Notes under the pieces: generated by a model | Databases searched by the model: none | Seen by the model: only the letters and a program-made list of their open reading frames with translations | What the model was told of the DNA's origin: nothing | Translations under genes and position numbers: made by a program | In this document: positions 25,608-54,837 of the stretch, in pieces | Position numbering within the stretch: position 1 is the stretch's first letter | Layout: each line of letters begins with the position of its first letter | Assembly (NCBI GenBank): GCA_964485325.1 | Contig: CAZAIT010000001.1 | Coordinates: forward strand, 1-58,663 | DNA from: Candidatus Woesearchaeota archaeon | GTDB lineage: Archaea; Nanobdellota; Nanobdellia; Pacearchaeales; GW2011-AR1 | Length of the DNA stretch: 58,663 nt | Direction of reading: 5' to 3'

Positions 25608-25669
25608 AGATTTTTTAGTTGTTATTAATTAAGAGTAACACTTATAAATTAAATTTTTGTATAATTTCT

Positions 25670-26659
25670 ATGAATACTAATTATGAAAATTATGGAGATA
25701 GTCCTTTAGGTAAGATAAGTGGTAAACCTTTTCATAAAATTCCCCTTTCGGATATAAACCCGTTTGTAGATAAAGAATTGGTTTCTACAACTTATGTTTT
25801 GGGTTCGCCTGGATCGGGAAAAAGTAGATTTGTTTCTAGGTTAATGGATGTTTATAATGGTAAATTAGCTATTGAATCTGGTGTTTTTGAATTATTTCAA
25901 AAACATGTTATAGAGTATGGTATTAAAAAGCGGAAGGAAAATAAATTAAATAATGGTCTTGAAGATTGGGATTTTGATATGCCTAATATTGATGGACTGA
26001 GTGTGCATGATAATATGATGATTGGATTTTATATTGATGATGGTTCAGGCCCTAGGAATGCTTCATATAGTGGACCTGGATCGTTTCATTATAGAGAATT
26101 TCTTTCTCATGTTTCTAGTGGTGGAAAATCAGGATTTCCTGATTGGTTATTTATTCCTGTAGGTGAAGATAAATATGCACAAGTAATTTCGTTTCCAGGT
26201 CATCAAAGTATTGATGATTTTTTAGGTGGAAATAACAAATCTATTCCAACTATTAATTCTCCAACTTCTGTTATTTATTTGATAGATCCTGATATTGATG
26301 CTTATGATGTATTTAATACAACTAATGCTAATCTGGCGAGAGACACTAATCCCCCATGGAAAGAGTTGGAGAAACACTTGTCCGACACTCTACGATTAGA
26401 ACTGGATGGAACTTCTACATATTGGTTTTTATCAAAAACTAATTCAGAAAAGTTCGATCTCAATCAGGAAAAGGCAGAAAAGATTTATTCAGATGGAGAA
26501 TATGCAATGGGAGCTAGTAGTGTTATGTTTGATAAATCCGGGAAGAGGGATTATTCTGAGATTGCTAATCGTCTTCCTGATATAGATTTTTCTGATTCAT
26601 TTAAAGATTCTAACGCAATAGTTCATCAGAAGTTTGATAAAATAATTGGTTTAGAGTAA
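25670..26659 (+). CDS. uncharacterised P-loop NTPase with GTPase-like motifs
   Basis: GSPGSGKS (G1), ISFPGHQS (G3-like), FLSKTN (degenerate G4). ATG at 25670. Confidence 0.45.
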   Translation: MNTNYENYGDSPLGKISGKPFHKIPLSDINPFVDKELVSTTYVLGSPGSGKSRFVSRLMDVYNGKLAIESGVFELFQKHVIEYGIKKRKENKLNNGLEDWDFDMPNIDGLSVHDNMMIGFYIDDGSGPRNASYSGPGSFHYREFLSHVSSGGKSGFPDWLFIPVGEDKYAQVISFPGHQSIDDFLGGNNKSIPTINSPTSVIYLIDPDIDAYDVFNTTNANLARDTNPPWKELEKHLSDTLRLELDGTSTYWFLSKTNSEKFDLNQEKAEKIYSDGEYAMGASSVMFDKSGKRDYSEIANRLPDIDFSDSFKDSNAIVHQKFDKIIGLE

Positions 26660-26773: not shown

Positions 26774-27574
26774 ATGAAATATATTGATGTTCATGCGCAT
26801 TTGGATATGGATCGTTTTAATGATGATTTAGATGAAGTTGTGGTTCGAGCTAAAGAGAATGATTGTTTTATTGTGAGTTCTGGGACAAATCCTAGTGCGA
26901 ATAGAAAAGTTTTGGAATTTTCTAAGAAATATGAAAATGTTTTAGCTTCGTTTGGAATTTATCCTATTGATGGAATTATTAGAGAGTTTCCTAGTTTGCA
27001 GGATGATGGCCCTCGTGAGATTATTTCTTTTGATGTTGATGAGGAGTTAAAATGGATTGAGGAACATAAAGATGAATGTGTTTTGATTGGTGAAATTGGT
27101 TTAGATTTTAAAGTTGTTGAAGCGACGCCAGAAATTAGAGAGGCTCAGATTAAAAATTTCGAGAAGATTATTGAGTTTGCAAAAAGAATTGATAAAACTA
27201 TATTGATTCATACTCGTGGTGCTGAGTTAGAATGTATTGAATTGTTGGAAAAACATAATTGTAAAAAAGTTATTATGCATTGTTTTAGTGGGAAGAAAGC
27301 TTTGATTAGGCGAATCGTTGAGAATGGTTGGTTTTTGAGTGTGCCGGCTGTGATTACTCGGCTTGACCATTTTAAGATGCTTGTTGCAATGACACCTTTA
27401 GAACAAATATTGACAGAGACAGATTCTCCTTATTTATCTCCTGTAACTAGAGAAAGGAATGAACCAGTTAATGTTATGATAACAGTTAAAGAGATTGCGA
27501 AGATTAAGGAATTAGATGAAGAAGTTGTTAAAGAGAAAATTGTTGAGAACACTGAAAAATTATTAAATTTATGA
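26774..27574 (+). CDS. tatD: TatD-family metal-dependent hydrolase
   Basis: MKYIDVHAHLD, GEIGLD, ILIHTR, VIMHCFSG, ETDSPYL. Confidence 0.88.
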   Translation: MKYIDVHAHLDMDRFNDDLDEVVVRAKENDCFIVSSGTNPSANRKVLEFSKKYENVLASFGIYPIDGIIREFPSLQDDGPREIISFDVDEELKWIEEHKDECVLIGEIGLDFKVVEATPEIREAQIKNFEKIIEFAKRIDKTILIHTRGAELECIELLEKHNCKKVIMHCFSGKKALIRRIVENGWFLSVPAVITRLDHFKMLVAMTPLEQILTETDSPYLSPVTRERNEPVNVMITVKEIAKIKELDEEVVKEKIVENTEKLLNL

Positions 27575-28429
27575 TGTAAATTTTATTCCAGTTGCTTTTT
27601 TTATAAGTCCCTTTTTGTTTTCTAAAATATCTTCTTTTTTTGATTTTTTTAAATATTGTTTAATCAGTTTTTTCTTTTTAGCTATACTTATATTTTGATT
27701 TGTATGCGGTCCTCCGATACATCCACCTTTACAAAATAAACAGTCGAGAAAAAGAATTTCTTTTTTAGGATTTTTTAAAAATGTCAATATATTTTGTGCT
27801 CCGTCTGTTATTTTAATTTGTTTTTTTGTCAGTATACCTTTTAGATGTGCTGTTTTTGAGAGTGCTCCTCCTAGTGGATATATTTTTGTATAATCGTTGT
27901 AAAATTTATCAAATTGCGTTTTAGAATTGTTCTCTTTTATTTTATATTTAACAAATAATTCTTTCAGTTGTTTAAAATCTATTACATAATCAACTTCTTT
28001 ATGTTGTTTAGCCTCTACTTTTTTGAAATCGCATGGCGACAAGAAAAATATTTTATATTTTGGAAAATATTTTCTACATATTTTTGACATTGCTATCATT
28101 GGAGAATCAATTTTTATGATTTGATTTTTTAATTCCGGATAATTATTTTCTATTGTTGTTACGCTTCCTGGACACGTTGACGCAATTAAAAGTTTCTTTG
28201 TTCTCTGGAGTTGTTTGTGATATTCTCTATTAATCATTTTTGCCCCAAAAGTCAATTCTACTACTTTGTCAAATCCTAATTTTTTTAATTGATGTATTAT
28301 AGATGGATATGAAAAATCTGTGACAAAACTTGGAGCAATCATAATTAGATTTTTTGTCTTGCTTTTTAGAACTTTTTCTATTTGTAGTATATTGTTTTTA
28401 TCTACCATCTTTGTTTTTATCTGCTCCAT
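27569..28429 (-). CDS. minimal [FeFe]-hydrogenase-like H-domain protein
   Basis: 286 aa. H-cluster-like motifs in the right order: ASTCPGSV (L1-like), LSPCDFKKVEA (L2-like), DCLFCKGGCIGGPH (L3-like). No N-terminal ferredoxin-like domain. Overlaps the OFOR beta gene by 13 nt. Confidence 0.6.
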   Translation of the reverse strand: MEQIKTKMVDKNNILQIEKVLKSKTKNLIMIAPSFVTDFSYPSIIHQLKKLGFDKVVELTFGAKMINREYHKQLQRTKKLLIASTCPGSVTTIENNYPELKNQIIKIDSPMIAMSKICRKYFPKYKIFFLSPCDFKKVEAKQHKEVDYVIDFKQLKELFVKYKIKENNSKTQFDKFYNDYTKIYPLGGALSKTAHLKGILTKKQIKITDGAQNILTFLKNPKKEILFLDCLFCKGGCIGGPHTNQNISIAKKKKLIKQYLKKSKKEDILENKKGLIKKATGIKFTS

Positions 28430-29205
28430 TTATCTTGTAATGTTAATTCTTTTGATTGGTAAATTATACCTAGCGGAATTTTTCCAGATTTTGAATTATA
28501 ATTAAATTCTTCAGCTAATTTCTCTGCAGCCTTTTTGCTTCTATTGTCTTTTATTTTATACATTTGTTTATCTTTACCATTTGCTTCTATATTAAAAATT
28601 AAACAATCTTGGATTACTTCGATAAATGAAAATCCTTTATGGGCAATTGCTTTTGTCATCATTTCAACCATGTGAGGAATGTCTCGTGCATTAGTTCTAG
28701 CTACGAAAGTTGCATTTGATGCTAGTGCAAGTTTTATTGGATTCATCGGTTTGTCAAATACTCCTAATGGCTGTGATTTTGAGGTATACCCTTGTTGGGA
28801 AGTTGGTGTTGGTTGTCCGGTTGTCAGAGAGAAAGATTGGTTGTCGTGTAAAACTAGAGTCATATCAGCGTTGTATTTGAAAGCATGAATAAAATGAGAA
28901 ATTCCTTCTGAATATACAGCTCCATCTCCAGCGAATGTTAAAACCTTTAGATTTGGGTTTCCGAGCGTTATTCCTATTGCGGTTGGTATTGCCCTACCAT
29001 GAAGACAATTTATTCCAGAAAGGTTTAGATAATCAAATATTTTTGCATGGCAACCTATATCTGTGGTGATTGCGAAGTCCGTTTGTTTATTTTTTTTTGA
29101 CTCAATTAATTTTGTTAGAGTTTGTTTTACACTTTCCAATATCATGAAGTTTGGACAGCCTGGGCACCAGGTATTTTCAGATTGAGTTGATAGATTTGGT
29201 TTCAT
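28417..29205 (-). CDS. 2-oxoacid:ferredoxin oxidoreductase, beta (TPP-binding) subunit
   Basis: WCPGCPNF, DIGCHAK, FAGDGAVYSEG (TPP motif). Confidence 0.88.
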   Translation of the reverse strand: MKPNLSTQSENTWCPGCPNFMILESVKQTLTKLIESKKNKQTDFAITTDIGCHAKIFDYLNLSGINCLHGRAIPTAIGITLGNPNLKVLTFAGDGAVYSEGISHFIHAFKYNADMTLVLHDNQSFSLTTGQPTPTSQQGYTSKSQPLGVFDKPMNPIKLALASNATFVARTNARDIPHMVEMMTKAIAHKGFSFIEVIQDCLIFNIEANGKDKQMYKIKDNRSKKAAEKLAEEFNYNSKSGKIPLGIIYQSKELTLQDKWSR

Positions 29206-30725
29206 AACATTCCCTTGATTAATTTATTTAATTCGTCTGAGTGAAAAGGCCGGCCGTTGTATTTCAATAATCTATTTTCAATTTTTATTCCAGTTTTTTC
29301 TCTAATTAATCTTCCTAGCTGTCCGGTAACATTGCATTCCACTAAGATTATTTTTGAAGCTTTTTCCAATTCTTCTTTTATTTGTGGAGACAATGGTTTG
29401 CAATATAATACCTGTAGAAATTTTGCATCTAAATCTTTTATAGCGTCTTTGATAGCGCCAGAAGTAGAACCCCAACCTATAACTAAATTTTTAGATTTTT
29501 TATTTCCATGAATTTTTATCATTTCGAAATTTTTCTCAATGAATTTTTTTGAATCTCTATATTTTGTTATTCGCTTGTTTATGTTTGCCTCAGTTAAAGT
29601 ATATGATTCGGTTGAATTTCCGAGTTTGTCGGTTTCGTATGATGAATTTTTAACTAAGCTTTTTCCAGGTATTTTTCTTGTTATTTTAAATTGTGGTGTT
29701 TTATTTGGTTTTATATTAGAAGAAAATTCTGATTCTGCTAAATGTTTGTCGCTAAGGATTACTGATAAGGTTCTAAATTTTTCTGCTAAATAAAGTGCTT
29801 CTGATGTTTTTTCTATGGTTTCAATTGGATTACCAGGAGCTATAACTATCCTTGGAAATTCTCCATGTCCCGCTCTAAGAGCTATATCTAAATCTGATTG
29901 TGCTGTATAAGTTGGAACTCCAGTTCCTGGTCCGGGTCTTGATGCTAAATAAACAGTTAAGGGAATTTCAGATATTCCTTGTAAGGAAAAAGATTCACTC
30001 ATTAAATCAAATCCCCCACCGGATGTTCCAGTCATTGTTTTTATTCCTGTAAAAGAAGATCCTAATGCCATGCTTACAGCTCCGATTTCATTTTCTGCTT
30101 GGAAAACTGTCAAGTTATTTTTTATTTGATCTTTTGCAAGTTCGTTCATTACTCCAGTAGCTGGAGTCATTGGGTATGCGATATATAATTTTAGTTCAGA
30201 GTTTCTTGCACCTATTGCAACTGCTTGACTACCAGATAAAATTAGTGGTTTATTATTTAGTGGGTTTAATTGATAAATTATTTTTTGTGAATCAAATCCT
30301 TTTTTTGCGGAAACAATTGCTTCGTTGTGAATCTTAAATTGTAATTTAATTTCATCTTCTAATTTTTCTAAGGGAATACCAAGAATTTTTGCCAAAGCTC
30401 CTGCAAGAGCAATATTTAGATTTTGTTTTTCTTTTTTAAATTGATCTGCAGTGATTATTATTCCATTTTTTTTCAAAGCGTGTTCATGTGTTTTTATTGT
30501 TCTTTCGTCTAACGCTACTAAAATATCAACTGTTGCATCATGACTTTCTATTTGAGAATCAGAAACTGACAGAGTATTGAAATTGTGTCCTCCTCTAATT
30601 AAAGATTGATAATCTCGATAATTAAATGTAAAGTAACCGTATTTATTTAGAGTTCCTGCAATGATTCCAGAAACTTTATTTATACCCTGTCCCGCTTTTC
30701 CACCTATAATAATATTCAACCTCAT
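29202..30725 (-). CDS. 2-oxoacid:ferredoxin oxidoreductase, fused gamma-alpha subunit
   Basis: N-terminal gamma-like IIIGGKAGQGINKVSGII, then alpha-like YPMTPATGV and GTSGGGFDLM. Confidence 0.88.
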   Translation of the reverse strand: MRLNIIIGGKAGQGINKVSGIIAGTLNKYGYFTFNYRDYQSLIRGGHNFNTLSVSDSQIESHDATVDILVALDERTIKTHEHALKKNGIIITADQFKKEKQNLNIALAGALAKILGIPLEKLEDEIKLQFKIHNEAIVSAKKGFDSQKIIYQLNPLNNKPLILSGSQAVAIGARNSELKLYIAYPMTPATGVMNELAKDQIKNNLTVFQAENEIGAVSMALGSSFTGIKTMTGTSGGGFDLMSESFSLQGISEIPLTVYLASRPGPGTGVPTYTAQSDLDIALRAGHGEFPRIVIAPGNPIETIEKTSEALYLAEKFRTLSVILSDKHLAESEFSSNIKPNKTPQFKITRKIPGKSLVKNSSYETDKLGNSTESYTLTEANINKRITKYRDSKKFIEKNFEMIKIHGNKKSKNLVIGWGSTSGAIKDAIKDLDAKFLQVLYCKPLSPQIKEELEKASKIILVECNVTGQLGRLIREKTGIKIENRLLKYNGRPFHSDELNKLIKGML

Positions 30726-30822
30726 AATAAATTATGGGAGGGAAGTTATATAAAGTTTTGTTCGTATTTGGTTATATGAAAGTAAATCAATTTGATCTCC
30801 GAATCATTTTCGGTGAACAAAA

Positions 30823-31407
30823 ATGAAAGGAGTGATTGATAGTCTTGAGATCGTGAAAAGTTTGCCTATGCCTAAATGGAAAATTATTACGAAACATGAG
30901 GATTTGAGTACGTTTGGATTTCCTTGTTATTTGAAAGCTGATGTTATAGGACATAAAAGTGAAATGGGAGCGATTACTCGATGTGATAATTTAGAAGATG
31001 CAGAAAGAAAACTGAGAAAAATGCATTTATCTTTTTTTAAAAATAAAATTATTGTTCAAGAAAATATTGAGGGTATTGAGATGATTGTCGGTTTGAAGAG
31101 TGATGAAGTTTTTGGAAAGTTATTGGTTGTTGGGTTTGGCGGTATTTTTGCAGAAGTGAAAAGAGATGTTTCATTTCGAGCTTTACCTGTTTCCAGGAGA
31201 GATATAATTTCTATGATTAAAGAATTAAAAGGAGTTGAAATTTTTAGAGCACGAGGCAAAAAATACAATTTGGAAAAATTTGTATCTCTGGTAGAAAAAG
31301 TTTCATTATTAGGAGAAAAATTAGGTATTAAAGAATTAGATTTAAATCCAGTTATTTTAAATGAGAAAGAAAGTAAGGTTGTTGATGTGAGAGTTGAAAT
31401 TAATTAA
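30823..31407 (+). CDS. acdB: ADP-forming acetyl-CoA synthetase, beta (ATP-grasp) subunit
   Basis: ATP-grasp-like CYLKADVIGHKSEMGAI...VQENIEGIEMIVG...LDLNPV. Confidence 0.7.
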   Translation: MKGVIDSLEIVKSLPMPKWKIITKHEDLSTFGFPCYLKADVIGHKSEMGAITRCDNLEDAERKLRKMHLSFFKNKIIVQENIEGIEMIVGLKSDEVFGKLLVVGFGGIFAEVKRDVSFRALPVSRRDIISMIKELKGVEIFRARGKKYNLEKFVSLVEKVSLLGEKLGIKELDLNPVILNEKESKVVDVRVEIN

Positions 31408-32704
31408 CTATTTTTCCTAAAGTTTCACACATTTCTTTTGGCTCATCAAAGTTTATTATTTCATGTTTCTCCATAAACTTTTTTGCTCCTTTAATTTGCT
31501 TTTCTCCTAAGAAGCAAGTAAATATAGGTTTTCTAGCTTTTAGTAATGTCTTTGCTGTAAATAAACTTTCCGTCATTTTTTGTGGAGTTAATAGGATTAT
31601 AGAAAAATCAAAATTTTCTCTTTCTATAATTTGTAGGGCTTTCTCATAATCTTCTGCAGATGCGTCACCAATTAAATCAACTGGATTGTTGTGACTCCAA
31701 TTTGAAGGGAGTACTCTGTTTAGTCTGTCTATAGTTAATTTTTGAAGAGATGGAATTTTTATTTTATTTTCTTCGCAAGCATCGGTTGTTAAAACTCCGA
31801 GTCCTCCTGCATTAGTAATTATGCCAGCCTTGTTTCCTATTTTAGGATATTTTGTTAGTATTTTTGCAATAGCAAAAAGTTGTTTTATTGAGTCGGCTTG
31901 GATGCATCCTGCTTGTTTTAAAATTCCTTCGTAAACTCCGGCTTCGGATGCTAGTGCTGCAGTATGAGATTGTGCGGCTTTTTGGCCTGCATGAGATTTC
32001 CCTGCCTTCAATATCACGATTGGTTTTCTACATCTTTTACATGTTTCAATAAAATTTTGTCCGCGGCCTTTTTTTAAAGATTCAAGATAAATTGTAATCA
32101 CTTTTGTGTTTTTATCTTTGGAATAATATTCTATAAAATCAGAAAAATCAAGTTGCGCGGAATTTCCTACGGAAACAAATCCAGATAATTTTGTATCTGT
32201 ATCTAATATTGTTGAGCCTATTGCCCCAGATTGTGAAATGAAAGCTATTTCTCCTTGCTCAGGCATTCCTTCGAAATATGTTGTGTTAAGTTTTTGAAAA
32301 GGATCTATCAATCCGTATGAATTTGGGCCTAGTAATTTTATGTTAGCTTCTTCTGCAATTCTTACAATTTGTTTTTCTAGTTCTGTATTTCCTATTTCTG
32401 AAAATCCAGCTGATAGGATTATAGCGGACTCAATTTTTCTTTTTTGTGCTTGTCTTAAAATTGATGGTATAAGTTTTGAAGGAACTGCTATAACAATACA
32501 GTCTATTTGATATGGTATTTCAAATATATCTTTGTAAGAATGATGTCCTAAAATTTCTTCTGCTTTTGGATTAACAGGAAATACTTTTTTTTCGGAATAT
32601 AAAAGATTTTTGAAAACTGTGTATCCGACTTTTTTTGAATCACGACTTGCTCCGACTACTGTGAAAACCTTTGCATTAAAAAATTTGTCAACCTCTGTCA
32701 CCAT
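31400..32704 (-). CDS. acdA: ADP-forming acetyl-CoA synthetase, alpha subunit
   Basis: CoA-binding VVGASRDSKKVGYTVFKNL, GPNSYGL, ISQSGA, SHTAALAS (phosphohistidine loop). Confidence 0.85.
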   Translation of the reverse strand: MVTEVDKFFNAKVFTVVGASRDSKKVGYTVFKNLLYSEKKVFPVNPKAEEILGHHSYKDIFEIPYQIDCIVIAVPSKLIPSILRQAQKRKIESAIILSAGFSEIGNTELEKQIVRIAEEANIKLLGPNSYGLIDPFQKLNTTYFEGMPEQGEIAFISQSGAIGSTILDTDTKLSGFVSVGNSAQLDFSDFIEYYSKDKNTKVITIYLESLKKGRGQNFIETCKRCRKPIVILKAGKSHAGQKAAQSHTAALASEAGVYEGILKQAGCIQADSIKQLFAIAKILTKYPKIGNKAGIITNAGGLGVLTTDACEENKIKIPSLQKLTIDRLNRVLPSNWSHNNPVDLIGDASAEDYEKALQIIERENFDFSIILLTPQKMTESLFTAKTLLKARKPIFTCFLGEKQIKGAKKFMEKHEIINFDEPKEMCETLGKIVN

Positions 32705-34883: not shown

Positions 34884-34918
34884 CGCAATTCTTATAAAGT
34901 GGTTTTTTGTGGTTTTAT

Positions 34919-35178
34919 TGTAGGTCAGGTCGGCGAGCTAGCCCCTCGCTTTTCGCAAATGGGCTTTATGGCGGACTGCAAGGCAAGGCGTGAGATGAAG
35001 CGATCAATGTTGTTAATTTGACGTTGAAGTTTTGTCCTTTTTGATCTTGCCTTGATGAATTGGGTCAGGTCGGGAACGAAGCAGCCCTAAGTTAAGGTTT
35101 GGATGCTTAAAGGGTCGCAGAACTGAGGATAATTGAAAACCTCTTGGTCGTGAATTTGAGCAACTTGTCGGGCCTACA
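34919..35178 (+). ncRNA. signal recognition particle RNA (archaeal 7S type)
   Basis: GC-rich island in an AT-rich intergenic gap. Helix-8 motif GGGTCAGGTCGGGAACGAAGCAGCCCTAAG at 35062-35091. 5' TGTAGGTC pairs with 3' GGCCTACA. Alu-like loops CTAGCCCC and ATGGGC are complementary. Ends are approximate. Confidence 0.8.
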
Positions 35179-35212
35179 TTAATTTTATAAAGTTCTTCTC
35201 TATCTCTTTAGT

Positions 35213-41872: not shown

Positions 41873-41918
41873 TTTTATCTTGCGTAAGGTTTATTAGTTT
41901 GTATTGTGTTTTTATTTT

Positions 41919-44345
41919 ATGCCATTTGATGTTGTTATAGGTAGAAATGAAAGTGATAAGAAATCTTTTGGGAATAGAGGTTTGGCTTTTATTGGAAAGA
42001 GTTTTGTAACAATGGGAAATTATACTTCCTTATCTAATCCTATTTTTATGGATGTGGCTAGAAGTCACGTTGTTTTGATATCAGGAAAAAGGGGTTGTCT
42101 TACAGGGGACACGATGATTTTTACTGATAAGGGTTATAAATTTATAAAAGAGTTTAATGAGAAAGAAGATAAAATATTATCATTTGATAAAGATATAAAA
42201 AAGTTTGAGTGGGAAAAGGCAAAGCTTTTGAGTTATCCAATAAAAAATGAGGATTTATTCAAAATAGAATTAAAAGATGGTAGAGTAATTAATTTAACAA
42301 ATGAGCATCCGTTATTATCTTCTTATGGTAAATATATTTATTATAGACGAGCTTGTGATTTGAAGGTTAATGACAAAATAGTTTTACCAACAACTTTACC
42401 CGAAATTAAGAAGGATGAAGAGAGTTTAAGGATTGCAAGATTGCTTGGATTTATTTTAGCAGATGGGACAATTAATATTAGAAAGGGACGTTTTAAGGAT
42501 GGGAGGGGAGCGTGGTACAATGGAACAAAGGCAAGAATTAGAATTAATAATGCTTGTGATGAGGTTTTAGTTTTGGCAAAAGAGGATTTTGAAAAAGAAT
42601 TTGATATCATTGCTAAGAGATATGAGAGAAATGATTGTAATTGTGAGATTGTTGAGACAAAACATCAAAAAGTTGTGAATAAATTTGTAAAGTTGGGAGT
42701 TCCTGTTGGTTTAAAATCTCACAAAATTCGTGTGCCTCAGATTGTATTTGAAAGCTCTAATAAATTTAAGGTAGAATTTATTTCGGCTTTGTTTGATTGT
42801 GATGGTTCTATTTCTAAGAATTCAAATACAATTGATTATTCAAGTAAATCAAGAAAATTTTTAGAAGATTTGCAGATTTTGTTATCTCATTTTAATATTG
42901 AGTCTGTGATAAGAGTCAAAAATGCAAAGTGTAATGGAAAAGTTTTTGAGAATTTTCGGTTGTTTATTACAGATAATAATTCTATTGAAAATTTTAAAAA
43001 AATCGGTTTTCATAGCGAATTTAAGCAAGAGAGATTAAATAAGCATAAATCCAATGGGACAAAGAAAAGGAAGACGCATTATCTATCGGAAAATTTGGCT
43101 TGTAGAAGGATTAAATCTATTGAAAAATTAAAAAATGTTGAAAAAGTTTATGATTTATCTGTTGATAAAAATCATTCTTTTATCGCGAATGGATTAATTT
43201 CACATAACTCTGGGAAGAGCTATACTATGGGAACAATGGCTGAATCTTTATCTGATTTAGGTGCTGAAGAGTCCGGAAATATAGCTTCTGTAATTTTTGA
43301 TACGATGGGAATTTATTGGACTATGAAATATAAAAATGTCAAGGATGCTGGACTTTTGGATGAGTGGGGATTGAAGGCAAAAAATATTCCTATGAGGGTG
43401 TTTGCTCCTTTTGGATATTATCAGGAATATAAAGATAAAGGTGTCGAAGTGGATAGTGAATTTGCAATTAAAATTTCTGAGCTAGAGCCTTCAGATTGGG
43501 TAACGCTTTTTGAGTTAAAGTTTACAGATACTATAGCTGTTGTAATCGAATCAGTTATTAGTGAATTGAGAGAATCAAAACAGAGTTATGGTTTTGAAAA
43601 TATTTATGATTTGATTAACCGTATTGAACACGTAGAGCAGGAAGTTAAAAATTCTGTTACGGCTTTGTTTGATGCAGCCAGGACATGGAAAATTTTTGAT
43701 GAAGAAAAAGGAACTTTGGTTCGAGATTTAATTTCTGCTGGGCAAACTACTGTGATAGATTTGTCTATGTATGCTTCTCTTGGATCGTTTAATGTTAGAG
43801 CTTTAATTATAGGGCTAGTTTCTAAGAAAATTTTTAATGAAAGAATGGCTTCGAGGAAAGACGAAGAAATTCAGGCGGTGCAACATGGTGCAGATTATGC
43901 TAGGTATAGAATTAAACGAGAGATGCCTCTGGTTTGGATATTTGTAGATGAGGCCCATGAGTTTTTGCCAAGAGAAGGAAAAACTCCGGCTACGGATGCA
44001 TTAGTTCAATTACTTAGAGAAGGAAGGCAGCCTGGGGTTTCAATAGTTATGGCAACTCAGCAACCGGGTAAAATTCATACAGATGCGATGACTCAGTCGG
44101 ATATTGTTATTTCTCATAGAGTTACGGCGAAATTGGATGTGGATGCTTTGAACGACATTACTCAGAGTTATATGTATGAAAATATTTCTTCAAAATTAAA
44201 TGGGTTGCCGAGATTGAAAGGCTCTGCAATTATTTTAGATGATAATTCTGAAAGAATTTATCCTATGAGAGTTAGACCAAGATTTACATGGCACGGTGGG
44301 GAAGCTCCTACTGCTATTAGAAAGATAGACGAAGATATCAATTAG
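41919..44345 (+). CDS. HerA/FtsK-superfamily (DUF87-like) P-loop ATPase, interrupted by an intein
   Basis: Exteins join as VVLISGKRG|SGKSYTMGT, giving Walker A GKRGSGKS. Walker B LVWIFVDEAHEF, then MATQQPGKI. ATG at 41919 preferred over the TTG at 41904. Confidence 0.85.
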   Translation: MPFDVVIGRNESDKKSFGNRGLAFIGKSFVTMGNYTSLSNPIFMDVARSHVVLISGKRGCLTGDTMIFTDKGYKFIKEFNEKEDKILSFDKDIKKFEWEKAKLLSYPIKNEDLFKIELKDGRVINLTNEHPLLSSYGKYIYYRRACDLKVNDKIVLPTTLPEIKKDEESLRIARLLGFILADGTINIRKGRFKDGRGAWYNGTKARIRINNACDEVLVLAKEDFEKEFDIIAKRYERNDCNCEIVETKHQKVVNKFVKLGVPVGLKSHKIRVPQIVFESSNKFKVEFISALFDCDGSISKNSNTIDYSSKSRKFLEDLQILLSHFNIESVIRVKNAKCNGKVFENFRLFITDNNSIENFKKIGFHSEFKQERLNKHKSNGTKKRKTHYLSENLACRRIKSIEKLKNVEKVYDLSVDKNHSFIANGLISHNSGKSYTMGTMAESLSDLGAEESGNIASVIFDTMGIYWTMKYKNVKDAGLLDEWGLKAKNIPMRVFAPFGYYQEYKDKGVEVDSEFAIKISELEPSDWVTLFELKFTDTIAVVIESVISELRESKQSYGFENIYDLINRIEHVEQEVKNSVTALFDAARTWKIFDEEKGTLVRDLISAGQTTVIDLSMYASLGSFNVRALIIGLVSKKIFNERMASRKDEEIQAVQHGADYARYRIKREMPLVWIFVDEAHEFLPREGKTPATDALVQLLREGRQPGVSIVMATQQPGKIHTDAMTQSDIVISHRVTAKLDVDALNDITQSYMYENISSKLNGLPRLKGSAIILDDNSERIYPMRVRPRFTWHGGEAPTAIRKIDEDIN
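42096..43208 (+). mobile_element. intein with LAGLIDADG homing-endonuclease domain (371 codons, in frame)
   Basis: Starts CLTGDTMIF, block B NLTNEHPLL, dodecapeptide motifs LLGFILADGTI and ALFDCDGSI, ends VYDLSVDKNHSFIANGLISHN followed by Ser. Inserted inside the P-loop. Confidence 0.85.
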
Positions 44346-44894: not shown

Positions 44895-47800
44895 ATGAAA
44901 AAACTTTTTTATTTTGCTTTATTTTTTTCTTTGTTAGTTATGGGTTTCGCATCGGCATCTATTAATATTAATCCTAATAGTGTAGAACTGGGAAAAGAAG
45001 TTGTAATTACTATTGATATGAATAGTTATGGTAATTATGTCTATTTTTATGATGACGCTGAAAACATGATAAGTTCTTACAGTTTAGGTTGTGCAGATAA
45101 TTTGTGTTCTAAAAAGACAACCTTTCAATATTTAATTGATGATTTTGATTTAGGAAATTATAAGATAGCTGTTTATTCTCACGACGATAACAAGTGGTTG
45201 TTTAGTAATTTTGAAGTTGTTGAATATAGATGTTCTGATAGAACTTTAGTTGGTGAGTGTTCTTCTACTAAACCTAAATATTGTGGAGAGGGAGAAATTT
45301 TGGTTGATGATTGTTCGAAGTGTGGATGTCTTGATGGGTATAATTGTCAGGAAGATGAGACATGTACGTTTACTCCTTTTTGTGGGGATGATAATTGTGA
45401 CACAATAGAAAGTTGTAATATCTGTCCTGATGATTGTGGAAGATGTGAGTATTCTGTAGGTCCAAATAAAAAAAATGAAGAATTATATTCTGACAAAGAA
45501 GTTTTTTTAGTTTCGGATAGTGACTGGAAAGAAGTTTTACCATTTGTCTCTGCTACAGTTTGGACGGAAAGAGATGAAATTCGAAAATATCCTTTTTTAG
45601 TTTATCATGAAGAGTTTACTTCTTGTTCTCTTTCTGGTAATAAATGCTATAAGTATGATATAGATTCCTCGATCTATTTTATGCAACAATATAACCCAGA
45701 TAAATTAACAATTATTGGAGAAACTCCGCAAGAAATAGATGATTTATTAATTTATGAAAATGATGGAAGCGATTTGAGTGGACCAGAATTATCTCTAGAC
45801 CATATTCAAAGAATTTCTAATGATGATTATTTAACTTATTGGGAAACTTTTGATAAAGTTGTTTACGTTGAGGATGATTATGAATTAGCTCTGTTGGCTT
45901 CTACTTATGCGTCATTAATTAATGCGCCTTTAATTATTGAAGGAAACATCCATGATTCTTTGGGAATATTCAATGGTAGAAACGTTATTTGTATTGGGGA
46001 AGTTTTACCTAGTGGAAAGGCTTGTGGTGAGAAATATAATTTAGAAGAGCTGCGAGATAAGTATAAAACAGAGACTAATACAAATAAAGTTATTTTGATT
46101 AACCCAACGGATTGGGGTACTGGTATTTCTTCATATTTTAATTTTAATCCAGATAAAACTAGTGGTAATAATAAACATCTTTATACTAAAACCTCTTTAA
46201 TTTCTCCTATATTAGCTTCATCTAAGCATGAATTAATATTAAGCACAAATGAAACAGATTATCTTAAAATTGATAAGTTTATTGCTCCTGGAATTTCGGA
46301 TATGGATTATTTGACGATTATGGCCGCATCAAATGTTATTCCACATACAAAGTTTAGACAGAGGATGGCTCATGCTTTTGATTGGGCACTTGATTCATCT
46401 CATTATGCAGATATAAATGGAGATTATATTCCAGATGTAGCTGTCGGAAGAATTGCTGGATTGACTAGTTCAGATGTATCTAGTTATGTAGCAAGAGCTA
46501 TTTTTTATGACACTTTCCCAAGAACAGAAAATACAAAGTTTATGGCAAGTTCTTTTCTCGGTTCTTTAGCAGCTATAGCTATTGAGAGGTCATTTGCATT
46601 TTCTTTAGCGGGATATAATTCAGAAAGTAAGACAACTATACTTCCTGCTAATTGGGATTGGAATTTTTTTACTTCAGAAGATTGGAAAAACCAAGATTTA
46701 ATATTTTATTTAGATCATGGAAGTACTGATTGGTCTGGAATTTATTCCTCTAAAGTTCCTCTCTTAGATAATTCTCTTGTTTTTTCAGTAGCCTGTGACA
46801 CTGCCGCTACATACAGACCTAATTCTTTCTGGGCGATAGCAATAAGAAAGGGAGCTATTGGATATTATGGAGCTACTAGTATTACTGGATTAAATAATAA
46901 TTATATTGATATTTTAAATGAGATTTATTCTTTTAGAACAACTACAATGGGGGGCGCTTTTAAAGAAAAATGGAGTACTTTTATTATGCATGGGATGACT
47001 ACCCTAATTGGAGACCCTACATTAGATATTAATCCTCCACATCATATTGGTCTTCAACCCAGAAGCAATATATGTAACCCTGAAAAAGAATTATGTTTAA
47101 CGAATGGTCAATGTTGTGATGATTTACGGTGTGAACTTTTTACTTGTAAAGGTTGTCAAGAGGCAGCAAATATTTGTTTATTTAATACTGATTGTTGTAG
47201 TGGATTACAGTGTAGTTGGGCTACATGTTCAGACTGTAATAATAATAATGAAGGATGTCTTGTTAAAAATGATTGTTGTGAAAGTACTGCTGGATGTTAT
47301 ATGTTTGAATGTGGTTTGCGAGAAATAGATGAAAGTTGTTTATTAAATACTGATTGTGGCATAGATGCTTTCGGTTGCCATATGTTTGAATGTGGTTTGC
47401 GAGGGATAGGGGAAAGCTGTCTCTTTAATGATGATTGTGAAAGAAATTTAGATTGTGCAGGTTGGGCATGTACTGATGGAGAGAATGGACAGAGTTGTAG
47501 TAGTGCTGAAGATTGTAGTTCTGATTTTTGTTATTGGGGAACATGTATGGATAGATTTCCAAATGGAAATGGGTGTCTTCTTGATAATGATTGTGCCTCT
47601 GACAGATGTAGTTGGTTCGTGTGTAGAAGTACTGGTTATGTGGATCCTTTAAATGATTGTGGTGGAGCTGACTCAAATTGTGGTACTAAACCGAATTGTT
47701 TAGATTGTAATGCAGTAAATCCTCCTGTTGAACCTGATTGTAAAGCGGGAGATAAGTTATGGCACAAATACTATCATTGTGATGGAGCCGAATGTGCAAA

Positions 47801-48107
47801 AGATATTTGGCGATCTGAAACCGAAACATGTACATGGGATTGTAAAGGTAGCGCATGTACTAATGGAAATAATGGAGAGAGTTGTAGTGATGATGGAGAT
47901 TGTAAATCTGATTTTTGTTATTGGGGGACATGTAAAGCATGTTATACTCCTGGAATCAAAGTTGGTGATTTGACTTTTAAATCTCCAGATCACTGTTGTA
48001 GTGGATGGGAACAAAAAACAAAGTCGGTATGTCGGCTTTGGGGTGGAGCTGGTTGCAAATGGTATTCTCATACAAAAATAGTAAATGATTATAAAGCGTG
48101 TAGATAA
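44895..48107 (+). CDS. 1070-aa secreted protein: C25 (gingipain)-like cysteine peptidase core plus C-terminal cysteine-rich repeat array
   Basis: Signal peptide LFYFALFFSLLVMGFASA. His/Cys dyad context IFYLDHGSTDWSG (His608, nt 46716) and LVFSVACDTAA (Cys634, nt 46794). From nt 47073 there are tandem C-x-n-DCC/DC-x-n-C modules. Confidence 0.75.
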   Translation: MKKLFYFALFFSLLVMGFASASININPNSVELGKEVVITIDMNSYGNYVYFYDDAENMISSYSLGCADNLCSKKTTFQYLIDDFDLGNYKIAVYSHDDNKWLFSNFEVVEYRCSDRTLVGECSSTKPKYCGEGEILVDDCSKCGCLDGYNCQEDETCTFTPFCGDDNCDTIESCNICPDDCGRCEYSVGPNKKNEELYSDKEVFLVSDSDWKEVLPFVSATVWTERDEIRKYPFLVYHEEFTSCSLSGNKCYKYDIDSSIYFMQQYNPDKLTIIGETPQEIDDLLIYENDGSDLSGPELSLDHIQRISNDDYLTYWETFDKVVYVEDDYELALLASTYASLINAPLIIEGNIHDSLGIFNGRNVICIGEVLPSGKACGEKYNLEELRDKYKTETNTNKVILINPTDWGTGISSYFNFNPDKTSGNNKHLYTKTSLISPILASSKHELILSTNETDYLKIDKFIAPGISDMDYLTIMAASNVIPHTKFRQRMAHAFDWALDSSHYADINGDYIPDVAVGRIAGLTSSDVSSYVARAIFYDTFPRTENTKFMASSFLGSLAAIAIERSFAFSLAGYNSESKTTILPANWDWNFFTSEDWKNQDLIFYLDHGSTDWSGIYSSKVPLLDNSLVFSVACDTAATYRPNSFWAIAIRKGAIGYYGATSITGLNNNYIDILNEIYSFRTTTMGGAFKEKWSTFIMHGMTTLIGDPTLDINPPHHIGLQPRSNICNPEKELCLTNGQCCDDLRCELFTCKGCQEAANICLFNTDCCSGLQCSWATCSDCNNNNEGCLVKNDCCESTAGCYMFECGLREIDESCLLNTDCGIDAFGCHMFECGLRGIGESCLFNDDCERNLDCAGWACTDGENGQSCSSAEDCSSDFCYWGTCMDRFPNGNGCLLDNDCASDRCSWFVCRSTGYVDPLNDCGGADSNCGTKPNCLDCNAVNPPVEPDCKAGDKLWHKYYHCDGAECAKDIWRSETETCTWDCKGSACTNGNNGESCSDDGDCKSDFCYWGTCKACYTPGIKVGDLTFKSPDHCCSGWEQKTKSVCRLWGGAGCKWYSHTKIVNDYKACR

Positions 48108-49778: not shown

Positions 49779-50372
49779 ATGGAATCTGATGTGATATCAA
49801 AGACCCTTAAAGGAAGTGAGACTGAAAAAAATCTGTTGAAATCTTTTGCCGGAGAAAGTCAGGCTAGGAATCGATATACATTTTTTGCTAGTAAAGCTAG
49901 AAAAGAAGGGTATGAACAAATAGCAAGTATTTTTTTGGAAACTGCAGACAACGAAAAAGAGCATGCAGAAATTTTCTTTAAATATTTTGAAGGCGGCAAT
50001 GTAGAGATTCAAGCAACTTATCCTGCTGGAAAAATTGGTAATACTGAAGAAAATTTATTGGCTTCTGCAGATGGAGAAAAAGAAGAATGGGGTGAAATTT
50101 ATCCTGAGTTCGAAAAAATTGCCAGAGAGGAAGGCTTTGAGGAAGTAGCTGCGTCATTTAAAGAAATTGCTGAAGTTGAAGAACATCATGAGGGAAGATA
50201 TAGGAAATTATTAGAGAATATAAAAAATAATGTGGTTTTTAAAAAACCAGAAGTAGTTAAGTGGAAATGTAGAAATTGTGGATATGTTCATGAGGGAAAA
50301 GAAGCTCCTGATGAATGCCCTGCTTGTAAACGTTCACAGTCTTATTATGAGGTATTAATGGATAATTATTAG
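49779..50372 (+). CDS. rbr: rubrerythrin
   Basis: Diiron four-helix motifs (EKNLLKSFAGESQARNRY, NEKEHAEIF, VEEHHEGRY) and C-terminal rubredoxin CRNCGY...CPACK. Confidence 0.9.
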   Translation: MESDVISKTLKGSETEKNLLKSFAGESQARNRYTFFASKARKEGYEQIASIFLETADNEKEHAEIFFKYFEGGNVEIQATYPAGKIGNTEENLLASADGEKEEWGEIYPEFEKIAREEGFEEVAASFKEIAEVEEHHEGRYRKLLENIKNNVVFKKPEVVKWKCRNCGYVHEGKEAPDECPACKRSQSYYEVLMDNY

Positions 50373-50657
50373 ATGGCAAAGAAAAAAGTAATTAAAAGCG
50401 AACCTAAAAGAGCTGATGGTAAAAAATGGTTTAGAGTTATTAGTCCTAAACATGAGTGGGGATTTATTCCTGTGAATTGGAGGGGATGGACATCATTACT
50501 TTCTTTGATTGCTATAAATGTTTTCTCTGCGAATTATTTTAATTTGAGGATTCTTGTTTTTGATAATTGGTCTAAGTTTGGAGTTGTGTTTTTTATCTCT
50601 CTCTTTGTTTTTATTATGATATCTAAAAGGAAAACCAAAAATGGCAAAAAGAAGTGA
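50373..50657 (+). CDS. small membrane protein
   Basis: 94 aa with two hydrophobic helices and basic termini. Sits between rbr and dfx. Confidence 0.4.
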   Translation: MAKKKVIKSEPKRADGKKWFRVISPKHEWGFIPVNWRGWTSLLSLIAINVFSANYFNLRILVFDNWSKFGVVFFISLFVFIMISKRKTKNGKKK

Positions 50658-51003
50658 GATTTACAAATGTGATATTTGTGGAAATATTATTGAGGTTTTA
50701 CATGGGGCTAATGGTCAATTAGTTTGTTGTGGGCAACCGATGAGTTTAATTGAAGCTAAATATAATGAAGAAGGAAAAACTGAAAAACATAAACCCGTTA
50801 TAGAAGGCAATGTTGTAAAGGTTGGTAGCGTTGAACATCCTATGGCTGAAGATCATTATATAGAATGGATTGAGGCTGTCGGAGAAGAAAATAAAATTTG
50901 TAAGAAATTTTTAAATCCTGGAGAATCACCTCGGGCTGAATTTGATTTTGAAGTTAAATCTGCACAAGCTTATTGCAACTTACACAATCTCTGGAAAAAT
51001 TGA
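50641..51003 (+). CDS. dfx: desulfoferrodoxin (2Fe superoxide reductase)
   Basis: N-terminal desulforedoxin YKCDICGNIIEVL...LVCCGQPM. SOR domain with EKHKPVIE and C-terminal CNLH. Confidence 0.88.
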   Translation: MAKRSEIYKCDICGNIIEVLHGANGQLVCCGQPMSLIEAKYNEEGKTEKHKPVIEGNVVKVGSVEHPMAEDHYIEWIEAVGEENKICKKFLNPGESPRAEFDFEVKSAQAYCNLHNLWKN

Positions 51004-52520: not shown

Positions 52521-53432
52521 ATGAAACTTGATGAGAATTTAGTAGCAGTTCATGCTTATTTATGTGGTGATGGGTATGTTATACAAAATCCGAAAATGCA
52601 AAAGAAAAAATATTATATGATAGGATTTAGAAATACCAATTTTGTTTTATTGAAAGATTTTCAGAATAAATTTGAAAAAACATTTGGGAAGAAGCCCTAT
52701 ATTACTAACGAGGGGAGGTGTAGGATTGGGTCAAAAGACATTTACAAAAAATTAACCGAAAATTTTGGGAGTTTTTATTCTTACTATTGGGTATTCCCAA
52801 AGTTGAGTGATAGATTTTCTAGAATTTGGCTTAGAGCGTTTTTTGATTGTGAAGGCTGGGTTGTTTGTAAGAGTCACCAGAGTAGATGTATAGGGCTAGA
52901 TTGTGTTAATAAAGAGGGGATATATAAGATTAAAAAGGCATTAGAAAATATCGGAATAATGTGTAAGATTAGAAGTAGAAATACTCGAAATATATTTTCG
53001 TTAGGTATTTTTGGAAAAGAAAATTTAATTAAATTTAGAGATGAAATTAATTTTTTACATCCTTTAAAAAAGAATAAATTGGATGAAGTTATAAAAGATT
53101 TTGTTAATTATAATTGGGAATTCCCCATAAGGAAAAACGAATTAAAAGATTTTATTAAAAATATATTTAGGGATAAAGCAAAAGTCAAAAGAGGAAGTTG
53201 GGTTGTTAGAATAGTTTCGAATAAAGAAAAGAATTTAATTCAATTGCAGAAAAAATTAGATAATTTATTTAATGTAGAGTCTAAAGTGAATGTGAATAAA
53301 AATGGAATTGGAACTGTTTATTATGAAATGAGTATCAACAAAAAAGAAGAGATTAGAAAACTAATTAAATATGGTTTAATAAGCGAGAATGAGAAGAAAA
53401 AATGGTTAAGTTCAAAAAAATCGATGACGTGA
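52521..53432 (+). CDS. free-standing double-motif LAGLIDADG homing endonuclease
   Basis: Dodecapeptide motifs LVAVHAYLCGDGYVI and WLRAFFDCEGWVV. 3' end overlaps the rtcB start by 31 nt. Confidence 0.8.
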   Translation: MKLDENLVAVHAYLCGDGYVIQNPKMQKKKYYMIGFRNTNFVLLKDFQNKFEKTFGKKPYITNEGRCRIGSKDIYKKLTENFGSFYSYYWVFPKLSDRFSRIWLRAFFDCEGWVVCKSHQSRCIGLDCVNKEGIYKIKKALENIGIMCKIRSRNTRNIFSLGIFGKENLIKFRDEINFLHPLKKNKLDEVIKDFVNYNWEFPIRKNELKDFIKNIFRDKAKVKRGSWVVRIVSNKEKNLIQLQKKLDNLFNVESKVNVNKNGIGTVYYEMSINKKEEIRKLIKYGLISENEKKKWLSSKKSMT

Positions 53433-54805
53433 CTTGGAAAATAGAAAAAGAAGGAAAAATGAATGTTCCTATAATTGTTTATGCGTCTGAAAAGTTGTTA
53501 GAAAAAATAAAACAAGATGATACTATGAAACAAGCTATGAATATGGCATCGTTGCCGGGCGTTTTGGAGAATGTAATCGTTTGTCCAGATGCTCATCAAG
53601 GATATGGCGCATGTATTGGTGGAGTTGCTGCATTTGATATCGAAGAGGGTGTTATTTCTCCAGGTGGCGTTGGTTATGATATAAATTGCTCCGTTCGTTT
53701 ACTGAAGACAAATTTAAATATAAGGGATTTAGCTGGAAAAGAAAAAGAAATTTCCAAATCATTATTTCTTGCTATACCTTCGGGAGTTGGGAGAAAAGGG
53801 AATATCCTATTGAATAATAGAGAATTAGATAAGGTTTTAATTAATGGAGCACAATGGGCTGTTGAAAAAGGGTACGGCATAAAAGATGATTGGATTCATA
53901 CTGAAGAAGAAGGGAAAATCACTGGAGCTAATCCCTCATCTGTATCTCAGAGAGCTAAGGGAAGAGGGTTGCATCAGTTAGGATCTCTTGGCGCAGGAAA
54001 CCATTTTATAGATATTCTCGCTGTTGATAAAATTTTTGATAAAAATATCGCAAAGGTTTTTGGATTGGAAGAAGGCCAGATTGTCATTTTAATTCATTGT
54101 GGATCTAGAGGGCTTGGACATCAAGTTGCCTCAGATTATATTAGATTAATGGAAGATAAATATGGTTATCCAAGTTTTGATAGGAGTCTAGCTAATGCTC
54201 CAATTAAGTCTAAGCCTGGTAAAAAATATTTTGAGGCGATGGCTTGTGCTGCTAATTTTGCATTTGCGAATAAACAAATAATTACACATCTTATTAGAGA
54301 AGAGATGAAAAAGTATTTTTCAAATTTTAAGGCAGATGTGGTATATGATGTTTGTCATAATATTGCGAAGTTTGAGAAATTTAACGAAAAAGAAGTCTTA
54401 GTAATGAGAAAAGGTGCGACTCGAAGTTTTGGCCCTGGGAGGATTGAAGTTCCAGAAGATTATAGAAAAGTTGGACAGCCTGTTTTGATACCTGGGTCTA
54501 TGGGAACTGCGAGTTATGTTTTATGCGGCACAAAGAAAGCAGAAAAAATTTCTTGGGGTTCAACGGCTCATGGTGCAGGTAGAGTTAGAAGTAGAAAAGA
54601 AGCTCATAAAAAAATGAGTTTTGAAAAAGCAAAAGAAGATATGGAAAAACGTGGAGTTTTTGTTGAATTTGGAGGGCAAAAAGGTTTAATTGAAGAATCA
54701 CCTTTTTCATATAAAAATATTGATGAAGTTGTTAGAATTTCAGATGAGGCTGGGCTTGGAAAGAAAATTGCGAAGCTGAAGCCGTTAATTGTTATAATTG
54801 GATAA
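53402..54805 (+). CDS. rtcB: RNA 3'-phosphate ligase RtcB
   Basis: CPDAHQGYGACIGGVAAFD, GYDINC, GAGNHF, HCGSRGLGHQV, SAPF-like C-terminus EESPFSYKNIDEV. Confidence 0.92.
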   Translation: MVKFKKIDDVTWKIEKEGKMNVPIIVYASEKLLEKIKQDDTMKQAMNMASLPGVLENVIVCPDAHQGYGACIGGVAAFDIEEGVISPGGVGYDINCSVRLLKTNLNIRDLAGKEKEISKSLFLAIPSGVGRKGNILLNNRELDKVLINGAQWAVEKGYGIKDDWIHTEEEGKITGANPSSVSQRAKGRGLHQLGSLGAGNHFIDILAVDKIFDKNIAKVFGLEEGQIVILIHCGSRGLGHQVASDYIRLMEDKYGYPSFDRSLANAPIKSKPGKKYFEAMACAANFAFANKQIITHLIREEMKKYFSNFKADVVYDVCHNIAKFEKFNEKEVLVMRKGATRSFGPGRIEVPEDYRKVGQPVLIPGSMGTASYVLCGTKKAEKISWGSTAHGAGRVRSRKEAHKKMSFEKAKEDMEKRGVFVEFGGQKGLIEESPFSYKNIDEVVRISDEAGLGKKIAKLKPLIVIIG

Positions 54806-54837
54806 GATTTAAATAGTATATTCTTTTTACTAAATGC

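Follow-up and report, generated by a model that had tools for sequence, protein, structure and literature searches.

The hydA gene and its product

The stretch of DNA analysed here (hereafter the window) comprises 58,663 nucleotides (nt) of contig CAZAIT010000001.1, from assembly GCA_964485325.1 of a Candidatus Woesearchaeota archaeon in the GTDB lineage Pacearchaeales. On its minus strand, the two genes of a 2-oxoacid:ferredoxin oxidoreductase (OFOR), oforA and oforB, are followed directly by a short gene, hydA, whose product resembles the catalytic H-domain of [FeFe] hydrogenases (coordinates of these and other features are given in Table 1). The longest hydA open reading frame (ORF) encodes 286 aa from an ATG at position 28429; the product would be 279 aa were translation to begin at the ATG at 28408. 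Three sequences resembling the H-cluster-binding motifs, ASTCPGSV (residues 83–90), LSPCDFKKVE (130–139) and DCLFCKGGCIGGPH (229–242), lie in the correct L1–L3 order, just as a first-pass annotation of the window had described them. Six cysteines are present in total, none of them before residue 86, and Fe_hyd_lg_C (PF02906) was the sole Pfam domain detected, so that the protein consists of an H-domain without accessory Fe-S domains; the annotation had likewise seen no ferredoxin-like domain.

The longest ORF overlaps oforB by 13 nt, and the overlap reported in the first-pass annotation therefore stands for that ORF, but not if an internal start is used. Most close homologues of hydA are 278–280 aa long, their first residue corresponding to Met8 of the longest ORF (MVDKNN...), whose codon lies at 28408, 8 nt past the oforB stop codon. 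The true start may be Met8, in which case an 8-nt gap replaces the 13-nt overlap. Whichever start applies, the two genes abut.

Homology, ligand residues and predicted fold

By sequence comparison, the resemblance of hydA to [FeFe] hydrogenases is far above chance. The Pfam H-domain profile matched residues 29–241 at E = 2e-39 (136.1 bits, cut-off 22.1), spanning profile positions 5–245 of 245; phmmer matched the protein to CpI at E = 1.8e-14; and a profile of 46 hydA homologues matched Thermotoga maritima HydA at 2.4e-26 and CpI at ~1e-20. The top NCBIfam model was that for monomeric group B1 enzymes (142 bits, under its whole-protein cut-off), and group A models, scoring 50–64 bits, did not reach their cut-offs of 406–900.

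Residues were assigned CpI numbers by counting along printed HMMER alignments, with verification by MAFFT; the CpI control row showed the expected residues. In both alignments hydA C86, C133, C233 and C237 fall on CpI C300, C355, C499 and C503, and these four cysteines were unchanged across the 46 homologues. A failure of the cysteines to align with the H-cluster ligands had been named in advance as grounds for abandoning the hydrogenase assignment, and the opposite was found. In CpI, the pocket that holds the CN and CO ligands is defined by Lys358, Glu361, Ala230-Pro231-Ser232 and Pro324. All have counterparts in hydA (K136, E139, A32-P33-S34 and P110, respectively), most of them invariant in the family.

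Conservation did not extend to the residues that carry protons in CpI. Thr85 of hydA occupies the position of the proton-relay Cys299, while Tyr70, Gln73 and Ile105 stand at Glu279, Glu282 and Ser319, so that the group A1 proton path is not found; in addition, CpI Met353 and Met497 are replaced by Ser131 and Leu231. The first-pass annotation had read the first cysteine of the L1 Cys-Cys pair as replaced by threonine. The residue is indeed Thr85, but the position is occupied by Val (29), Pro (18), Thr (15), Ala (11) or Ser (4) among 80 related loci, indicating that threonine is one state of a freely varying site rather than a specific replacement.

An AlphaFold2 model of hydA, made with an alignment of homologues, had a mean predicted local distance difference test score (pLDDT) of 83.9 and a predicted template-modelling score of 0.85. 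In a Foldseek search of the PDB with this model the top 50 listed matches were all [FeFe] hydrogenases, the best being CpI (6GLY_B, E = 7.5e-14, template-modelling (TM) score ~0.7 normalised to the query), and the structural check proposed with the first-pass annotation thus yielded an H-domain fold. Set against CpI (4XDC, 6GLY) and Chlamydomonas reinhardtii HydA1 (3LX4), hydA has the same fold (Foldseek E ~1e-13, TM ~0.7) and shares with both the four cysteine ligands and the pocket residues, but it is only ~21% identical to them, has shortened loops, is ~70–170 residues shorter than their H-domains, and differs at each of the proton-path and methionine positions given above; CpI's accessory F-clusters are entirely absent. 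Confidence in the model is lowest at residues 178–185, within the only internal stretch where pLDDT is <50, and it is here that FYNDYTK lies (residues 173–185, about 27875–27913), a motif that ranks among the best conserved in the hydA family and is invariant across it. By alignment the stretch precedes the Phe417/Gly-Gly region of CpI. FYNDYTK may form a mobile loop close to the active site.

Family relationships and group assignment

A protein search with hydA recovered 1232 database clusters at E ≤1e-5. The best 120 of these contained proteins of 269–327 aa with PF02906 only, and those with names were from Pacearchaeota or simply 'archaeon'. An exhaustive search of 50%-identity representatives gave 39 clusters at E ≤1e-30, mostly short, below which ranked proteins of 560–1030 aa in which an N-terminal 2x[4Fe-4S] domain is combined with a C-terminal CGACGY motif and with PAS, sigma-54 or kinase modules, a domain make-up that identifies group C architecture. 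A few relatives bearing TSCCP and a complete proton path were group B-like. In a tree of H-domain-trimmed sequences (neighbour-joining, without bootstrap, and with neither HydDB references nor a Nar1 reference sequence among its leaves), hydA fell within a clade of 41 leaves, separate from both the long group C-like and the TSCCP group B-like proteins. No fewer than 40 of the 41 members were ≤320 aa; the exception, P0140, is a 352-aa protein with an N-terminal 2x[4Fe-4S] ferredoxin domain.

A scan of genomes found hydA relatives in at least 229 GTDB species-level genomes; counts given here for related loci take in the best 80 of the 229 loci, nearly all of which were titled Woesearchaeota, Pacearchaeota, Nanoarchaeota or plain 'archaeon'. 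Among the matches listed, the closest public sequences were 84–92% identical to hydA. One of the loci (L073, contig CABMGN010000008, isolate LFW-170_3) encodes a hydrogenase 51% identical to hydA (E = 8e-102) and was equated, by shared accession prefix, with 'CABMGN01 sp902385635 (Nanoarchaeota)', whose enzyme has been modelled as a group E [FeFe] hydrogenase (Greening et al., Cell 2024, PMC11216029). The two proteins come from different species-level lineages and differ at the Cys299 position, where hydA has Thr and the CABMGN01 enzyme Val. Judged by this identity and by its place in the neighbour-joining clade, hydA belongs to the group E ultraminimal [FeFe] hydrogenases.

Group E was described from Iainarchaeota, Micrarchaeota and Nanoarchaeota (PMC11216029). 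Its members have a mean length of 286 residues and consist of an H-domain only, with condensed loops; the ligand cysteines are all kept and the proton-transferring residues differ. hydA is alike in each of these respects, and likewise has a DPANN host, an adjacent OFOR and no HydEFG nearby. The host itself is confirmed as archaeal by an archaeal signal recognition particle RNA in the window (99.8 bits, gathering score 96.5); G+C content is ~31%. Family match, fold, host and gene order therefore all agree with the first-pass annotation, which had pictured an ultra-small [FeFe] hydrogenase next to an OFOR in a DPANN-like genome.

The nearest relatives of hydA outside group E, by score, are group C proteins (T. 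maritima HydS type). Like them, hydA has Tyr at Glu279, Leu at Met497 and a variable residue in place of Cys299, whereas the Met353 position is Gly in group C-like sequences and Ser in hydA. The features that mark group C proteins as sensory are missing, hydA having no signalling domain, no N-terminal [4Fe-4S] domain and no C-terminal cysteine motif. Nar1/NARF-like proteins are eukaryotic factors of cytosolic iron–sulfur protein assembly, with an N-terminal ferredoxin-like cysteine cluster and a degenerate H-cluster pocket. hydA differs on every count, given its archaeal host, its lack of any cysteine before residue 86 and its intact pocket residues. The first-pass annotation had foreseen a grouping with Nar1/NARF-like or other Fe_hyd_lg_C-related families as the alternative outcome; hydA groups with neither Nar1-like nor sensory families, with the proviso that the tree contained no Nar1 reference.

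A separate observation concerns P0141, a predicted protein of 4122 aa in the representative library, which contains seven near-identical tandem H-domains of group A type (TSCCA), followed after the last copy by what is maybe a flavodoxin-like region. Either a polyprotein of eukaryotic origin or an artefact of assembly could account for it.

Gene order around hydA

The genes oforA, oforB and hydA all lie on the minus strand, with an overlap of 4 nt between oforA and oforB. The products of the first two (507 and 262 aa) have the features of an alpha-beta OFOR, and their nearest solved structures are both subunits of the Sulfolobus tokodaii enzyme (5B48_A at E = 6.8e-68 for oforA, 5B48_B at E = 2.4e-48 for oforB). 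As in S. tokodaii OFOR (5B46, 5B48), the alpha subunit includes a fused gamma-like domain, the beta subunit has the thiamine pyrophosphate (TPP) site and one [4Fe-4S] cluster, and there is no delta subunit; a delta or ferredoxin-like OFOR subunit was not present with oforA and oforB. The alpha subunit is shorter than that of S. tokodaii, at 507 against ~627 aa. Scores were under NCBIfam equivalog cut-offs, and the enzyme is assigned at the level of the 2-oxoacid family.

A candidate TATA element, the TTTATATA box, sits 21 nt 5′ of the oforA ATG, within a 97-nt intergenic region shared with the divergent gene for the beta subunit of an ADP-forming acetyl-CoA synthetase. As read from the sequence, the box would fit the promoter of a leaderless oforA-oforB-hydA transcript, and we infer that the three genes are co-transcribed. 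The synthetase beta gene recurs as a neighbour in loci L001, L002, L020, L033, L058 and L066.

Linkage to OFOR was frequent among relatives. In 39/80 related loci an OFOR beta gene lay ≤6 kb upstream of the hydrogenase gene (37 on the same strand, two on the opposite one), being immediately adjacent in 18, separated by 1–3 unrelated genes in 13, and further off on the same strand in six. In ~15 of the 18 adjacent loci the hydrogenase start overlapped the 3′ end of oforB, with offsets of −1 to −55 nt, indicating that tight coupling is conserved in the clade whichever start hydA itself uses. hydA is thus probably translationally coupled to oforB, to judge from the spacing of the genes. The first-pass annotation had remarked on the OFOR genes beside hydA; they are co-oriented with it, abut it at oforB and are found in the same arrangement in relatives. 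A conserved gene lying between oforB and hydA, such as might encode a dedicated carrier or a maturation factor, was looked for and the idea rejected, as the inserts found in relatives (a histidine phosphatase, GNAT-like proteins, a putative toxin-antitoxin pair and membrane proteins) were mutually unrelated.

The rest of the loci made up a second synteny class, which contained no OFOR. Here the hydrogenase gene was preceded by genes for TFIIB, S8e, an Sm protein and RNase Z and followed by that for glycyl-tRNA synthetase (L008, L017, L036, L043–L050, L055–L060, L064, L065 and others).

Genes for a small single-cluster ferredoxin of 59–61 aa (MVKVSVDKKKCIGCGxC...CP) were found 0–4 kb from the hydrogenase gene in six relatives (Table 1); a homologue of this ferredoxin was not found in the window. 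These genes, together with the ferredoxin fusion in P0140, favour a ferredoxin-mediated link between OFOR and hydrogenase over a direct complex of the two. Charge gave no clue to the partner, since the hydrogenase and the OFOR have isoelectric points (pI) of 9.8 and 9.1 and the candidate ferredoxin of relatives is also basic.

Table 1. Positions of the features discussed, in the window unless a related locus is named.
Feature	Position	Strand	Basis
hydA, assigned to group E ultraminimal [FeFe] hydrogenases, H-domain only	27569..28429	-	Pfam, motifs, ligand mapping, AlphaFold2/Foldseek, 51% identity to CABMGN01 enzyme
oforB, OFOR beta subunit, TPP-binding, single [4Fe-4S]	28417..29205	-	Pfam TPP_enzyme_C 7e-28; NCBIfam 2-oxoacid ferredoxin oxidoreductase beta 5.8e-74
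oforA, OFOR alpha subunit, gamma-like POR domain fused to POR_N	29202..30725	-	Pfam POR_N 1.6e-38, POR 2.8e-20; NCBIfam OAFO_sf 1.9e-129
TTTATATA box, candidate archaeal TATA element	30747..30754	-	read from sequence
ADP-forming acetyl-CoA synthetase beta (ATP-grasp) subunit	30823..31407	+	Pfam ATP-grasp_5 6.3e-28
ADP-forming acetyl-CoA synthetase alpha subunit (CoA-binding, succinyl-CoA-ligase-like domains)	31400..32704	-	Pfam Succ_CoA_lig 4.2e-44, CoA_binding_2 4.1e-24
Small ferredoxin genes of relatives	L014 7724-7903; L016 7724-7909; L058 6870-7061; L034 10667-10906; L026 10294-10500; L070 2616-2861		
P-loop protein	25619-26659	+	
Signal recognition particle RNA	34918-35179	+	
HerA/DUF87-type ATPase with intein	41904-44345	+	
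Peptidase_C25-domain protein	44895-48107	+	
Rubrerythrin	49779-50372	+	
Desulfoferrodoxin (superoxide reductase)	50641-51003	+	
Free-standing LAGLIDADG ORF	52521-53432	+	
RtcB tRNA-splicing ligase	53402-54805	+	
Long ORF, running past window end	54830-58663	+	

A putative fermentative module

The family to which hydA belongs, the conservation of its ligands, its fold and a gene order that recurs in relatives have been shown here, and are most readily accommodated if hydA is a group E, H-domain-only hydrogenase encoded in an oforA-oforB-hydA operon, which re-oxidises ferredoxin and releases H2; this we consider likely. One group E enzyme, Fm from Ca. Forterrea multitransposorum, has been characterised: besides the H-cluster it binds one [4Fe-4S] cluster, and it produces H2, with a bias towards proton reduction (PMC11216029). 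By analogy, hydA would bind an H-cluster and evolve H2. The [4Fe-4S] part of this cofactor would be ligated by Cys86, Cys133, Cys233 and Cys237, the last of which would also bridge to the di-iron site, and Lys136, Glu139, Ala32-Pro33-Ser34 and Pro110 would line the pocket round the H-cluster. The two-subunit OFOR would oxidise pyruvate or another 2-oxoacid to acyl-CoA and CO2, its electrons passing by way of the one [4Fe-4S] cluster to a small ferredoxin whose gene would lie outside the window; we infer that ferredoxin is also the carrier from which hydA draws, so that the hydrogenase would re-oxidise the reduced form with release of H2. The ADP-forming acetyl-CoA synthetase would then convert acetyl-CoA to acetate with formation of ATP, and OFOR, hydrogenase and synthetase would together make up a compact fermentative module of five genes. 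A role in ferredoxin re-oxidation during fermentation has been proposed for group E, and OFOR genes often adjoin the hydrogenase in metagenome-assembled genomes of Nanoarchaeota and Micrarchaeota (PMC11216029). An anaerobic lifestyle is indicated by genes for rubrerythrin and desulfoferrodoxin lying close together in the window, an oxygen-defence pair typical of strict anaerobes.

Several points weigh against this interpretation. As judged from the alignments, the whole canonical proton path is absent from hydA, and what stands in its place resembles the pattern in slow, putatively sensory group C enzymes. Roughly half of the hydA family lies away from OFOR, in a housekeeping context. No ferredoxin gene was found in the 58.7-kb window, where the sole Fer4 motif is that of ABCE1, and none of HydE, HydF or HydG was found there either by motif scan or by Pfam on large ORFs, bearing out the first-pass annotation, which had seen no maturase. 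Finally, the group E proteins Na and Fm both expressed well but had poor solubility, and the published activity is that of Fm (PMC11216029); a literature search for group E biochemistry later than that paper found none. With regard to maturation, a full HydEFG set was present in 5/130 archaeal genomes and an alternative route is thought likely (PMC11216029); maturation of hydA, too, would proceed without HydEFG. Radical-SAM CxxxCxxC motifs occurred only twice in the window, within a 1070-aa peptidase-C25-like protein and within a 31-aa ORF. A 346-aa P-loop protein with the motif GSPGSGKS is encoded on the opposite strand to hydA; as a candidate HydF-like GTPase it was rejected, having no Pfam match, one cysteine and no counterpart in the 80 loci.

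The carrier is where an alternative presents itself most directly. Sulfolobus-type OFORs use free ferredoxin, which argues against any arrangement in which the hydrogenase docks on the two-subunit OFOR and draws electrons from the beta [4Fe-4S] cluster with no free ferredoxin. Such docking would nevertheless suit the abutting or overlapping genes, in the window and in ~15 of the 18 adjacent relatives, which suggest equimolar co-production, as well as an OFOR type that has no delta or ferredoxin subunit and a window that holds no ferredoxin gene; the H-cluster is, moreover, solvent-exposed in published models (PMC11216029). Against it stand the half or so of the family that is far from any OFOR, the 13 loci in which oforB and the hydrogenase gene are parted by unrelated genes that vary from locus to locus, the ferredoxin genes and ferredoxin-domain fusion of relatives, and the strongly basic character of both prospective partners. 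We therefore regard a direct complex as unlikely, and hold it equally doubtful that the hydrogenase is, by way of translational coupling, a stoichiometric third OFOR subunit in a ferredoxin-free 2-oxoacid:proton oxidoreductase.

The missing relay (Cys, Glu and Ser alike) could also be taken to mean that hydA is an H-cluster or Fe-S protein with very slow catalysis or none, whether a sensor of redox state or H2 or a Nar1-like Fe-S assembly factor, and the residues it shares with group C-like sequences (Tyr for Glu279, Leu for Met497), the PAS-, sigma-54- or kinase-linked multidomain proteins that are its nearest relatives by score outside group E, and the lack of maturases in the window all point the same way. 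Yet hydA is an H-domain alone, with no output domain and no N-terminal cysteine cluster; its four ligands, together with the pocket Lys358, Glu361 and Ala-Pro-Ser, are invariant across the family; catalytic activity, with a bias to H2 production, has been demonstrated for one group E enzyme (PMC11216029); and sharing an operon with a ferredoxin-reducing enzyme suits a protein that serves as a catalytic electron sink. A sensory or assembly role is accordingly rated as improbable, a little more so than direct docking. The flow of electrons might, lastly, be reversed, with hydA as an uptake hydrogenase feeding low-potential electrons to an OFOR that runs backwards as a 2-oxoacid synthase in CO2 fixation. 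[FeFe] hydrogenases and OFORs are reversible in principle and Fm showed bidirectional voltammetry, but Fm is biased to proton reduction (PMC11216029), the adjoining ADP-forming acetyl-CoA synthetase suggests catabolic flux with a yield of ATP, and carbon-fixation genes were not found in the window; of all the readings this seems the most remote. Ferredoxin re-oxidation with release of H2 thus remains the favoured interpretation.

Relation to published group E enzymes

hydA is an ordinary further member of group E, the enzyme class, its OFOR neighbourhood and the missing maturases having been published in 2024 (PMC11216029). The traits singled out in the first-pass annotation are not new: small size, want of accessory domains, altered L1, linkage to OFOR and missing maturases had all been described there already, along with TmHydS as the closest characterised homologue of Fm (28% identity). 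What the present analysis adds is that the start/stop overlap with oforB recurs in the clade, that the family falls into two synteny classes, that the Cys299 position is freely variable, and that ferredoxin is the likelier link to OFOR, given the small ferredoxin genes and the one fusion seen in relatives. hydA also adds a predicted member to the very small H2-producing enzymes that are of interest for the design of streamlined H2 catalysts, in a locus where all five genes of a fermentative module would stand together in an archaeon with a reduced genome. The locus is a possible test case for how protons reach the H-cluster when the relay-cysteine position varies freely, and for how the H-cluster is assembled without HydEFG, neither question being new or specific to this window.

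Other features of the window

The 1070-aa protein mentioned above contains 75 cysteines and a Peptidase_C25 (gingipain-like) domain. Two LAGLIDADG homing-endonuclease sequences are present: one as a domain within an intein that splits a HerA/DUF87-type ATPase gene, the other as a free-standing ORF directly upstream of, and overlapping, a complete gene for the tRNA-splicing ligase RtcB. The interval from 54.8 to 57.4 kb at first appeared to be a gene-free stretch of 2.6 kb; a check for RNA genes there was empty, and the stretch proved to be the start of a long ORF. The predicted product of this ORF begins with a signal-peptide-like sequence (MRKRMMLGF...) and contains repeats of ~100–140 aa resembling Ig-type surface-protein domains.

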